Source: an uncultured cyanobacterium (GTDB taxonomy: Bacteria; Cyanobacteriota; Cyanobacteriia; PCC-6307; Cyanobiaceae). From it: a stretch of 64,000 nt of DNA. Position numbers: made by a program. Positions 33,001 through 36,000 of this stretch are shown one piece after another (within the stretch, counting starts at the first letter, position 1; each line of letters begins with the position of its first letter). The stretch spans positions 54,487-118,486 of the forward strand of contig CAVONQ010000008.1 in assembly GCA_963697335.1 (NCBI GenBank), read 5' to 3'.

Positions 33001-36000
33001 ATCGCCCACCGCTGCACCAGCATCGCCACCCGTCTCACTAACCTGGCCCTGGCCACCGGCACCGCTTCGCCCCTGGGCATCCTCACCCTCACGGAGTTCC
33101 TGCAGGCTGGGGTGGTGGCGGGCCAGCCGGTGATCGCCATCGGCCAGCTGGCCCTGCCCGACGTGCTGGCCACCCTGCCCCAGGGCAGCGATCCCCAGCA
33201 GGCCCTGGACCGCGTCAGCGAGCGCATCCGCAGTGTGTCCACCGGCCCGGCCATCGCCGAGGTGCTGCTGCGGGAGGGGCTGGTGGAGTTTGTCGAGGTG
33301 CCGCTCGACTGAGCTCTGGGAGCCGCTCCAGGGGCATGGCGGCTGGTCAGCCAAGAGAGTCGGGCTCCAGCCGCTTGTGGCCCCCCAAGGCTTCGAGCCA
33401 CACCAGCACGGCCAGCCAGTGCAGACCCACCGCCGACCAGAGCGAGCCGGTGAGGCTGTAGATGAGCACGCAGGCGCCACCCAGCAGGGTGCACTGCAAC
33501 AGGAAGCGGGGGTCGTCAGAGACGGCCCGCCCCTGGGGGTACCAGAGGCGCCCCGCCAGGGGGTGGTAGGCCACGAACAGTCCCACGCTCAGGGCCCCCC
33601 AGGCCGCCATGGCGGCGGCGGGCACGCCTTCGAGGGGATGGGGCAGCAGCAGGCCCCGGAAGATCAGCTCCTCCACCAGCGCCGGCAGCACCAGCAGAGC
33701 AGCGGCGCGGCGCAGCAGGCCAGGCCAGCCTCCTCCGCCCGGCCGTCCCCAGCGCCAGGGTCCGTGCAGGAAGCCGCTGCCGAATCCCAGCCCCAGGGCC
33801 AGGGCGCCGTAGAGCAGCAGCACCAGCACCGAAAAGCCCAGGGGAGCCCCCAGCAAGGGCGGCACCAGCCCATCCATCAGCCGCGGCACCAGGGTGCCCA
33901 CCACCGGCAGATGGCCCAGCAGGGTGGTGGGGGCCACCGGCTCCAGCGCGGGGTTGTTGCCGGGGATCTGGTTGGTGCGCAGGATCCAGAGCGGCAGCCC
34001 CTGGCGCAGGAAGACGGTGGCGAGGCCGTCGTGGGCGCGGCGCGGCAGCATCGAGCGCAGGCTGAGCAGCACCGCCACCGGACCCTGGCTGGTCATGAAG
34101 GCGGGCTGGGCGGCGCCGCCCGCGGAGTCCTGGCGCAAACCCGTGCCGGCCATGGCGGTGACGCGGGCGTTGTGGCGCCAGTCGGGGCGCACCATGCCGA
34201 AGGGCGTGAGCAGCTCCTCCAGGCCCCGCCCCAGGCGACTCAGGCGGCTGTCCGGATCGGGCGCGACACCGGCCAGCCGTTGTTCGGCGCGCAGTTGATC
34301 CAGGGCGATCCAGAGGGCCTGGCTGGAATCCTGCACACAGGAGGTGGCGGGCGTCACCAGGGCCACACCCTGGCCATCGCCGGTGCGGTAGCGGGCACTG
34401 ATGATTTCGGCCTGCAGGGCCAGGGCATCCAGCAGGGGGCCGTCCAGGGGCACCAGCACATCGGAGAAGGGGCGGGTGCCCAGCCAGCCCCGCTGCAGGT
34501 TGCCGGCGTAGGCGCTCCAGTCCTGACTGCCCGCAACGATGCCGTTTGGGTTGTTGGCATAGATCTGGTGGTAACGCAGATCGAGCTGGGGCTCGCCGCT
34601 GAATGGATCCACCACCACTTCGGCCTCGCCGAGGGCCAGATGGCCGGTGGTGGTCCAGGCCGGGGAGGGTTCGCCATCGCGGCCGCCGATGCCGCCGAAC
34701 AGATGGATCAACAGGGCCCGCTGGCCGGGGCTCGCCAAGGGCAGCTCGTCGGGCTCCGAGCTGAGGGCGGTGCTGGTCAGGGTGCCCCGGCGCAGGGCCG
34801 CCTCCGCCCAGTTCTCGCGGTTGATCTGCCTGAGGCCTGAGCTGGTGCCCCGCACGACCCGCGTCGGGCTGAGGCCCAGCAGGGCCCGCGGTTGCAGCGC
34901 CTGCACGGTGAACACCCCATCGGGGCCGGGGGCGCCGCTGATCAGCCACCCCTTGGGGTTCAGCTCCGAGGCCACCAGTCCGCTCGGATCCAGCATCACC
35001 CGCCCGAACCGATCCGGCGGCAACCGGGGAATCCTGATCGATTCCTCCACTCCGGAGAAGTCACGGCCGGAGCGGTCGTAGTGCCGCACCCGCCAGCGGT
35101 GCGGATCATCGCTGGCGCTGTCGGGCCCCAGCACGGTGACCAGCCCCAGCCAGCGCCCGCTGGTCTGCACCGGCGGCTTGCTGATCCGCAGCGTGTCGCC
35201 CTCAAGGCTCACCCCCTCCAGCCGCACACTGACGCTGTCCTGGGGGCGAGCCCCGGCCAGGGACTGCAGCGGCCCCACGGCCAGCCGGCCATCCAGGCGG
35301 GTGGGCACCACATTGGCGGCGGCGGCGGCCTCTCGGGCGGCCTGGCCCAGGCGCACATCGGTGCTCACCGCCTCCACCATGGCCTGCAGTCGGGGCTGGT
35401 CGGCCCAGGTGAGACCCAGCCGCTGGCCGATCAGGGCCTCCTGGCCAGGCGGCGCCTGCTCCAGATCCAGCCACACCCAGTCGCCGCGGCGCAGGGCCTT
35501 CTCCTCCACCGAGGGCAGGATCAGCCGGCCCATCCACTCGGCATGGGGCCGGTAGAGCTGCTGATCGGGCTTCAGGCCCAGGGGGTAGTAGGAGCTGTGG
35601 CTGAAGGGGGAGCGGTTGGCCAGGGCCTCGCTGCTCTCCGGCAGCGGGCGCTCCGGAGTGCCCTGGCGCAGCGGCACCGCCTGCAGCCCCGGGCGGAGCG
35701 GGCCCAGGGGCAGCAGGGCCAGCACCAGGGCCAGCAGCCCCCCCAGCAGGGTTCGGAGAGCACGCAGACGGGCAGAGCTGCTCATGGTGCTGTCACCGTA
35801 CCCAGCACCACGCGGGAGCCCCGCTCCGAGGCGATCACCTCCAGCCCGCAGCGAATCCGCTCCCGCAGGGCCCCCACGTGGCTGATCAGGCCGATCATGC
35901 GTCCGCCCTCCCGCAGGCGATCCAGCTCATCCATGGCCAGTTGCAGGCTGTCCGCATCGAGGCTGCCGAACCCCTCGTCGATGAACAGCGTGTCCAGGGC

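Follow-up and report, generated by a model that had tools for sequence, protein, structure and literature searches.

A question raised by this locus is what the long unannotated part of a protein recognised by its membrane domain might do, and how the two parts are related. The window, a 64,000-nucleotide stretch of DNA from an uncultured cyanobacterium of the Cyanobiaceae, contains an ORF (GC3 of 0.90) whose 812-aa product has a single Pfam match, to the CPBP family PF02517 (residues 693–792, E 1.2e-10, 42 bits against a cut-off of 22.4), while NCBIfam returned only a weak and partial CPBP match. The approximately 580 residues between the signal or anchor and the CPBP domain are without a Pfam match. 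The preliminary description assigned to this region a permuted papain-like (PPNE) site with the His ahead of the Cys, and regarded the protein as a one-chain equivalent of the staphylococcal lipoprotein N-acyltransferase pair LnsA and LnsB. The features of the gene are collected in Table 1; a crude hydropathy test detects a hydrophobic N-terminal stretch in 108 of 120 close fusions, and adjacency to sbcC is common to about 10 related Cyanobium-type loci.

Table 1. Features of the 812-aa gene and its upstream neighbour (window coordinates; residue counts refer to 112 distant representatives)
Feature	Position	Strand	Description
Whole gene	33347..35785	(-)	812 aa; signal/anchor, tandem OB-like barrels, permuted papain-like Cys-His domain and CPBP
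Residues 1-37	35675..35785	(-)	Basic N-region and hydrophobic stretch; predicted signal peptide or signal anchor
Residues 45-345	34751..35653	(-)	Beta-rich and well folded in the model; probably two OB-type barrels
Residues 346-622	33920..34750	(-)	Predicted permuted papain-like (PPNE) catalytic domain; pLDDT 90.8
His382	34640..34642	(-)	Predicted catalytic base; start of strand 2; 111/112
Gln407	34565..34567	(-)	Predicted third polar residue; end of strand 3; 111/112
Tyr466	34388..34390	(-)	Predicted NlpC/P60 signature tyrosine; 17 residues ahead of Cys483; Tyr 95/112, Phe 6/112
Cys483	34337..34339	(-)	Predicted nucleophile; N-terminus of core helix in the model; 109/112
Residues 640-812	33350..33868	(-)	Five-helix CPBP (Rce1-like) domain
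sbcC	35782..38817	(-)	Upstream; 4-nt overlap (ATGA) with the start of the 812-aa gene; context only

Among the best 120 of 1266 homologue matches, one of which is the window's own cluster, the motifs GH[FL]xxG and CxQDS were each retained in all 120, ARYRxGDG in 118 and EExxFR in 119, reproducing exactly the counts first given for the CPBP fusions. The putative catalytic residues are also kept in the distant representatives (Table 1), in which a second conserved His (H361) is found in 105 of 112 and a GD motif ahead of strand 1 retains its glycine (G354) in 101 of 112, position 355 being Asp in 64, Glu in 13 and Gln in the 812-aa protein. In the predicted model the domain proceeds from strands b1–b5 through two long helices, the second being the Cys helix, to b6; Cys483 is the first residue of the core helix, and the modelled strand subdomain lies ahead of the helical subdomain as in PPNEs. 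The order of elements (GD-b1, His-b2, Gln-b3, Tyr, Cys-helix) is that of BcPPNE (PMC3142127).

Structure comparison with 48,161 PDB chains returned four at a Z of at least 5, all of them PPNEs: 3kw0 (BcPPNE; Z 7.9, rmsd 3.4, 144 aa), 2if6 (YiiX; Z 7.2, rmsd 3.7, 143 aa), 6v98 (TseH; Z 6.9, rmsd 4.4, 150 aa) and MARTX RID (Z 5.4, rmsd 4.1, 133 aa). These matches cover most of each small target, and Aichivirus 2A, PLAAT4 and DeSI appear further down among the top 45. The scores for 3kw0, TseH and YiiX are higher than those obtained initially (5.8, 5.6 and 4.5), and because Z values below 8 are frequent between unrelated folds the support that they lend is of moderate strength. ESM features (0.80–0.82 to TseH, IcsB, CLN5 and Lnb_N, against an earlier 0.78–0.80 for Lnb_N, TseH and IcsB) are treated as leads only. 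Foldseek against the PDB and viral models again gave nothing at E≤0.001 with either model, a second look among its own matches recovering RID alone, and HMMER against the PDB gave nothing with the protein or profiles as queries. Profile alignment using hhalign with 23 local Peptidase_C92 sequences (a shallow set, Neff 4.3) yielded a probability of 1.4%, inside the range of the shuffled controls, and with one Lnb_N sequence gave no signal over shuffled columns. The best reading is that the domain represents a new PPNE family, a confident model placing His382, Gln407 and Cys483 at the PPNE catalytic positions, and in this respect the preliminary description was borne out.

The preceding region, residues 45–345, is modelled at a pLDDT of 96.3; the VIA rows obtained for it in structure comparison were almost all OB/NTR-type barrels (best Z 5.7), falling on two model ranges, about 37–165 and 22/166–260, and no usable match to ESM named clusters was found. 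It always accompanies the catalytic domain and, judging from the model, probably comprises two OB-type barrels.

The CPBP domain retains E705, E706, R710, F737, H741 and H789, residues assigned with reference to the catalytic residues and the oxyanion-hole motif-4 Asn of Rce1 (PMC5874806). E706 is invariant in 87 fused and 15 free CPBPs, and H789 is present in 86 of 87 and 15 of 15, respectively. The motif-4 Asn is replaced by Val793 (Val in 114 of 120 close fusions), and neither Asn nor Asp occurs at this position in any of the 87 fused or 15 free rows (102/102), leaving the Rce1-like set of E, H, H and N incomplete. A predicted complex between the soluble and CPBP portions scored 0.26 against a mark of 0.32 and is not counted as evidence. 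Positive-inside counts, a measure of charge bias, put the N-terminal domains on the non-cytoplasmic side of the membrane in the predicted topology.

Whether the CPBP domain is a true partner can be judged from genomes in which the two parts are separate. Among 251 genomes of the class, a free CPBP of the same subfamily was found, unlinked, in 10 of the 11 genomes whose sole catalytic copy is free and not of the hydrolase type, in 5 of 30 with hydrolase-type copies only and in 17 of 156 without the catalytic domain, counts in which kin genomes are not independent. Counted by genus, with both samples together, a free catalytic copy and a free CPBP coincide in 8 of 10 genera, and all five further genomes chosen for a free catalytic gene possess a free CPBP. 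Three Cyanobium-type genomes carry the two halves on separate contigs, although in trees both fall inside fused clades; one Cyanobium lineage has split the fusion and retained both halves, in a single event. The catalytic enzyme is supported as being functionally linked to a specific CPBP partner, whether fused or encoded separately. The pairing is not obligate, since the catalytic domain is missing from 17 of 86 CPBP-positive genomes (5 of these were rechecked with a second profile) and two genomes (G089 and G337) have a free catalytic copy without a CPBP; the 17 CPBP-only genomes led us to reject an obligate pair. At one locus of non-cyanobacterial appearance, inspection by eye found no CPBP among the ORFs of at least 150 aa (L173).

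A paralogue of 959 aa (G000:C7:216332-219211) shares 36% identity over residues 73–622 of the 812-aa protein, close to the 35% over 550 aa first described, and carries His702 and Cys820 at the equivalent sites, as had been claimed. It has no match in a Pfam search. EExxFR is absent from all of the best 120 among 328 paralogue matches, again as described, and GxSGG is present in 119 of them rather than the 109 originally counted. Ser230, Asp280 and His321 are conserved in 119 of 119 aligned rows (one row, missing the cut anchor, was left out) and in 14 of 14 sequences of a second set. The N-terminal part aligned weakly with PDB entries on the elbow (best E 0.41–0.5), and a weak Pfam Thioesterase match (best E 0.012) was found in 6 of 14 paralogue-type sequences. 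The conserved Asp and His and the GxSGG elbow would make this part a serine hydrolase. The hydrolase-fused clade is probably cytoplasmic, which would put lipoprotein N-termini out of its reach.

The catalytic domain occurs in 95 of 251 genomes of the Cyanobacteriia, consistent with an earlier 22 of 60, and the family comprises 506 clusters at 50% identity, extending to Riflebacteria, Polyangiaceae and one fungus-like eukaryote. No CPBP is found in the chain of 93 of 112 full-length distant representatives, most of which are free proteins; 32 of 72 free representatives were without a signal in a crude test. Additional fusions are an independent one to Hydrolase_4 (P0233) and one to Lnb_N (P0209). 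The neighbourhoods of 80 loci displayed clade-level synteny only and no conserved neighbour hinting at a lipid pathway. Two plasmid records match the family, no phage record does, and no RNA carrier was listed. The family is without a Pfam model of its own, and no paper on it and no assigned function were found in the literature searched. The names 'CAAX protease' and 'abortive infection protein' are also borne by relatives without a CPBP domain, so that the misnaming of the CPBP-less paralogues was correctly noted; the latter name presumably stems from the Abi/CAAX Pfam label. An anti-phage function was rejected, as none of five proteins matched the PADLOC defence models at E≤0.1.

The only PPNE-CPBP pair found in the literature searched is LnsA and LnsB of Staphylococcus aureus (PMC7387801, PMC13559823), with which the cyanobacterial form shares an exported His-before-Cys PPNE, the signature Tyr and a CPBP membrane partner; the two staphylococcal genes are unlinked, as are the split cyanobacterial forms. 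The cyanobacterial form, however, is usually one chain, its catalytic part and tandem OB-like barrels together (about 580 aa) are three times as large as LnsA (189 aa), and its CPBP keeps EExxxR, FxxxH and the His that LnsB, in which the motifs are degenerate and dispensable, has lost. The LnsAB system is defined by transfer of the sn-1 acyl chain of PG to the N-terminus of a diacyl-lipoprotein in a host without Lnt; the cyanobacterial hosts possess Lnt, and the likeness is drawn from folds and pairing. Lnb of Bacteroides (PF13387) likewise joins an outside PPNE domain to a C-terminal five-helix membrane domain in one chain; the available portion of PMC11573676 presents Lnb as replacing Lnt, with which the cyanobacterial protein coexists, and does not describe its membrane part as CPBP. 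The Lnb_N profile matched neither the 812-aa protein nor 121 genomes of the phylum, its own included, while a Bacteroides control genome was matched. The YiiX/YaeF family and BcPPNE (Peptidase_C92, PF05708) give the best structural matches and share the element order and GD motif, yet identity is 8%, and the cyanobacterial domain has sizeable helical insertions following the Cys helix, the OB-like region and the membrane or hydrolase fusions. TseH, Tox-Act1, MARTX RID and PLAAT/LRAT share the PPNE fold and use acyl-thioester chemistry, phospholipase or acyltransferase activity having been shown for several; a difference is that the surroundings of the cyanobacterial genes examined showed no sign of a secretion system, an immunity gene or a toxin-like architecture.

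The characterised PPNEs met with in the literature searched (LnsA, Lnb, Tox-Act1 and LRAT/HRASLS) are acyltransferases or phospholipases, and the superfamily also comprises peptidases and deSUMOylases. PPNEs possess a hydrophobic S1 pocket (PMC3142127). The explanation that we prefer, and to which we give an even chance, is that this is a thiol acyl-enzyme, exported and tethered to the membrane, that belongs to a new PPNE family and has the CPBP domain as its dedicated partner, which would present donor or acceptor as LnsB would for LnsA. Observed sequence conservation, architectures, co-occurrence and trees underlie this explanation, together with a predicted fold, predicted residue roles and predicted topology. 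Cys483, activated by His382, itself oriented by Gln407 and with Tyr466 at the oxyanion site, would attack the ester or amide bond of a fatty acyl group, the likeliest source being a membrane glycerolipid, to form an acyl-thioester, and the chain would then be handed to water or to an acceptor in the envelope. Anchoring of the enzyme and presentation of the lipid donor or acceptor would fall to the CPBP domain; this role and the acyl chemistry are carried over from relatives. The fusion partners (GxSGG serine hydrolase, Hydrolase_4 and Lnb_N) point to acyl chemistry. The N-termini of bulk lipoproteins, which Lnt already serves, are probably not the acceptor. A broader extension, which we advance tentatively, is that PPNE and CPBP together form a general acyl-transfer machine of two parts with at least two origins. 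In cyanobacteria the CPBP cavity, still catalytic or lipid-binding, would feed acyl donors to the outside Cys enzyme in a novel acylation of the envelope or thylakoid lumen, and the sister clade would perform related cytoplasmic chemistry with its serine hydrolase.

A peptidase or amidase pair appears rather doubtful; in it the PPNE would cut peptide or lipo-amide bonds, for instance to trim or de-acylate envelope proteins or peptides, and the CPBP would work as an intramembrane protease of the glutamate type. The conserved E705, E706, R710, H741 and H789 of fused and free CPBPs would suit it, as would the lipo-amidase role proposed for YiiX and BcPPNE (PMC3142127) and OB-type barrels that could bind polymer or peptide. 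However, the oxyanion-hole Asn is absent throughout, the Rce1 cavity opens toward the cytosol (PMC5874806), opposite the predicted location of the PPNE domain, and acyl chemistry accounts better for the recurrent fusions to serine hydrolases and Lnb_N. It is unlikely that the protein is a genuine lipoprotein N-acyltransferase of the LnsAB or Lnb kind, coexisting with Lnt by serving only some lipoproteins or by acting in a different compartment, for instance the thylakoid lumen, even though the two folds, the outside catalytic domain and the unlinked split genes parallel LnsA and LnsB, and Lnb performs this task as a one-chain PPNE and membrane protein (PMC11573676). An Lnt-like gene was found in 46 of 47 carriers (the exception being G162), and that of the protein's own genome has its catalytic motifs; replacement of Lnt was rejected on this ground. 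The patchy spread, the intact CPBP motifs, the size of the domain with its OB region, the signal-less free representatives and the probably cytoplasmic hydrolase clade also argue against it. Of the preliminary claim of a one-chain LnsA and LnsB equivalent, the link to CPBP stood, now on the stronger evidence of free-gene co-occurrence and the fission, and the Lnt gene already noted was found again, whereas the lipoprotein N-acyltransferase identity was not supported as stated. The tandem OB-like region, the numerous free forms and the occurrence beyond cyanobacteria had no place in that description. Most improbable is a common alpha/beta arrangement that is not papain-like, with a structural or metal-binding His and Cys: the best Z of 7.9, the silence of Foldseek, HMMER and hhalign and the second conserved His (H361) would accord with it, but the top four chains belong to one superfamily and are largely covered, His, Gln, Tyr and Cys follow one another as expected, each on its predicted element, and the ESM features name the same group.

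Under the preferred explanation, many cyanobacterial proteins named 'CAAX protease' or 'abortive infection' contain an unnamed Cys-His enzyme that probably transfers fatty acyl chains or strips them off, and this probable acyl-enzyme is present in roughly one third of the cyanobacterial genomes sampled. The cyanobacterial forms bear on the role of LnsB, and the natural fusion, the split forms and the fission allow the part played by the membrane partner to be tested with a single gene.

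The only Pfam match in the 812-aa fusion protein is PF02517 (CPBP), at residues 693-792. Residues 1-37 look, by sequence, like a signal peptide or anchor, and a comparable hydrophobic N-terminal stretch is present in 108 of 120 close fusions. Residues 45-345 were modelled with a pLDDT of 96.3, and nearly all of the 50 rows listed in a structure search with this region are OB or NTR-type barrels (best Z 5.7) that map to two ranges of the model, a lead towards tandem OB-like barrels rather than proof of them. In the model of the catalytic domain, residues 340-625 (pLDDT 90.8), five strands come first, followed by two long helices, additional helices and a sixth strand. 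Over 34 fusions the CPBP loops 1-4 carry on average 2.3, 0.4, 2.4 and 0.1 Lys+Arg residues and the tail 2.9, a bias from which, by the positive-inside rule, we infer that the N-terminal domains would lie outside the cytoplasm. The gene start overlaps the stop of the upstream sbcC by 4 nt, and sbcC also adjoins a family gene in approximately 10 related loci.

Coordinates of the fusion gene, its paralogue and neighbouring features
Feature	Position	Strand	Remarks
Fusion gene	window 33347-35785	-	812 aa; GC3 0.90
sbcD-sbcC operon	window 35782-40040	-	last gene is the overlap partner of the fusion gene
Convergent neighbour	window 32746-33312	+	COP23 domain at cut-off, 23.3 bits
882-aa ORF	window 23761-26409	-	one frame; presumably a transglutaminase-like N-terminal part plus malic enzyme (by motif)
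Paralogue	C7:216332-219211		959 aa; 36% identity over residues 73-622; single paralogue in the genome
212-aa membrane protein gene	L001:7698-8336	+	overlaps paralogue start; no NCBIfam match
grrP, grrM/oscB cyclophane peptide genes and short alpha/beta hydrolase-like ORF	L001:4166-7440	+	just upstream of paralogue
968-aa protein	L001:13536-16442	+	no NCBIfam match; downstream of arylsulfatase

An exhaustive profile search with the domain returned 506 representatives at E≤0.001, and 112 of the best 150 span the whole domain. Among these 112, Arg467 is invariant, His382 and Gln407 are each kept in 111, Cys483 in 109 and Gly354 in 101, while position 466 is Tyr in 95 and Phe in six, and position 355 is Asp in 64. 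In the model, strand 2 opens with His382, strand 3 ends with Gln407 and the core helix opens with Cys483. Comparison with 48,161 chains gave Z≥5 for four only, 3kw0 (7.9), 2if6 (7.2), 6v98 (6.9) and 5xn7 (5.4), all of them PPNEs, a Z of 7-8 often being reached by chance; lower rows include Aichivirus 2A (4.3), PLAAT4 (3.8) and DeSI (3.4), likewise of PPNE type. Foldseek, HMMER and hhalign yielded no match to the domain. The conserved residues of the modelled domain have the arrangement described for BcPPNE in the consulted part of PMC3142127, namely GD before strand 1, His49, Glu64, Tyr127 and Cys154 at the N-terminus of a helix. The catalytic domain is very probably a PPNE.

The domain has no model in Pfam, NCBIfam or PADLOC, the Lnb_N profile PF13387 does not match it, no copy occurs in 50,697 phage records, and no published account was found in the literature searched by listing and abstract opening (subscription papers and Lns supplements excepted). 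It is not mentioned in the consulted portions of PMC10318531 (with supplements), PMC12419801, PMC7542359 and PMC7880944, and those of the PMC12994826 supplements hold only two unrelated CPBP neighbour rows. Lnb, as excerpted in PMC11573676, already joins a PPNE and a membrane domain in one chain, so the architecture has precedent; the Cys-His domain is very probably a PPNE family not described in the literature searched, in a known kind of arrangement.

Of the 112 representatives, 19 are fused to a CPBP and 11 to a hydrolase, 10 are long without either partner, and 72 are free forms, the last being, by a crude test, lipobox-like (14), signal-like (26) or without signal (32, some starts perhaps truncated). 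Named relatives come from Riflebacteria, Polyangiaceae, Deltaproteobacteria and Paraphysoderma. Two of the eukaryotic relatives (P0246, P0255 and P0215), from Paraphysoderma sedebokerense, a fungus-like parasite of algae, have signal-like N-termini, and P0215 has long low-complexity stretches. The domain is fused to another alpha/beta hydrolase in P0233 (Hydrolase_4, residues 190-297) and to Lnb_N in P0209 (residues 703-857). Plasmid copies occur in Stanieria and Kovacikia (AP017376.1 and NZ_CP083583.1).

In a FastTree tree of the domain (117 rows, midpoint rooting only) the bulk of the free forms that do not look cyanobacterial falls on one side (support 100). The tree also contains two clades (support 99), one with all 22 CPBP fusions and the other with all 22 hydrolase fusions, around which free cyanobacterial forms branch; L078, a row under the free label, has a divergent CPBP fused to it. 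On this topology each fusion may have arisen once from free ancestors. The motif counts of the preliminary description for CPBP fusions were reproduced in the best 120 of 1266 matches, as were those for the paralogue's type in the best 120 of 328, save that GxSGG is found in 119, not 109.

The paralogue lacks CPBP; its Ser230 (GFSGG), Asp280 and His321 are invariant, making it a candidate serine hydrolase, and profile support for the hydrolase fold is weak. Its two N-terminal helices, basic start and less basic loop weakly suggest that the hydrolase and Cys-His domains may lie in the cytoplasm. The 212-aa protein corresponds to the N-terminal membrane part of hydrolase fusions of approximately 1200 aa (45/120); such forms bear the database name Yip1-like. 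In three genomes (G017, G386 and G388) a CPBP fusion has a hydrolase fusion as its immediate upstream neighbour, an adjacency absent from five further loci whose long fusions are similar. The grrP/grrM-oscB context was not seen to recur. Broken hydrolase-type copies occur at L224 (G490; three ORFs) and L145 (G011; a truncated fragment).

Two partly overlapping samples, of the phylum (301 genomes) and the class (251), were searched with a profile built from 34 fused CPBP domains. In the former the domain is present in 48 genomes and the CPBP subfamily (E<1e-20) in 39, 38 of which have the domain; in the latter 69 genomes have both, 26 the domain only, 17 CPBP only and 139 neither. Any genome with a fusion is bound to match this profile, so that information comes from free genes alone. 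With genome classes sorted by frame length and part checked on loci (31 lower-scoring matches fall outside those listed), a free CPBP was found, among the matches listed, in 10 of 11 class genomes that have a free copy of non-hydrolase type but lack a fusion, in 5/30 with hydrolase-type copies only (one a fragment) and in 17/156 without the domain, co-occurrence counts being inflated by kin; pooled by genus it is 8/10, the misses being G089 and G337. The 17 CPBP-only genomes show that CPBP has an existence independent of the domain. Five further genomes picked for a free catalytic gene all have a free CPBP on another contig. Two of them are kin of one sampled genome, G002. For the remaining three, the catalytic gene falls within the fusion clade of Cyanobium type and the free CPBP among Cyanobium-type fused CPBPs (support 99), apart from other free CPBPs. 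As both halves nest within fused clades while the genes are separate, this is, judged by tree placement, one Cyanobium-type fission that kept both genes.

Almost every carrier of the domain also has an Lnt-like gene (46 of 47), as do 68 of 70 genomes tested. At 128.9 bits the copy in the present genome falls short of the cut-off (132.9), and it shows the Glu, Lys and Cys motifs. A convincing lnt is missing from G162 (best match 57.8 bits, partial); this genome (99% complete, approximately 90 contigs; L137, L144) carries a hydrolase fusion and a mere fragment of a CPBP gene. As excerpted, PMC13559823 describes LnsA as a 189-aa exported PPNE requiring its His, Cys and Tyr, the LnsB motif residues as dispensable and PG sn-1 as the acyl donor, and PMC7387801 reports non-contiguous lnsA and lnsB genes and a degenerate LnsB. 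In contrast, fused and free cyanobacterial CPBPs retain E705, E706, R710, F737, H741 and H789; only the motif-4 Asn is missing, the residue that in Rce1 forms the oxyanion hole with His (PMC5874806, in part). Of the preliminary proposal of a one-chain equivalent of LnsA+LnsB the PPNE/CPBP link stands, but the retained motifs, unlike those of LnsB, and the near-ubiquitous Lnt-like gene among carriers make lipoprotein N-acylation proper unlikely.

A peptidase or amidase pair is doubtful, though less so than lipoprotein N-acylation, and an erroneous fold call, favoured by the chance level of the Z values and the negative searches, is the most improbable alternative. PPNEs have a hydrophobic S1 pocket (PMC3142127, in part), and LnsA, Lnb, Tox-Act1 and LRAT/HRASLS act on acyl chains (PMC13559823, PMC11573676, PMC7387801 and PMC12994826, as excerpted). 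On the basis of this pocket, the acyl-handling PPNEs and the fusion partners, the best reading, to which we give an even chance, is that the Cys enzyme would form an acyl-thioester with a chain from a membrane lipid and that CPBP would be the presenting partner of the acyl-enzyme.
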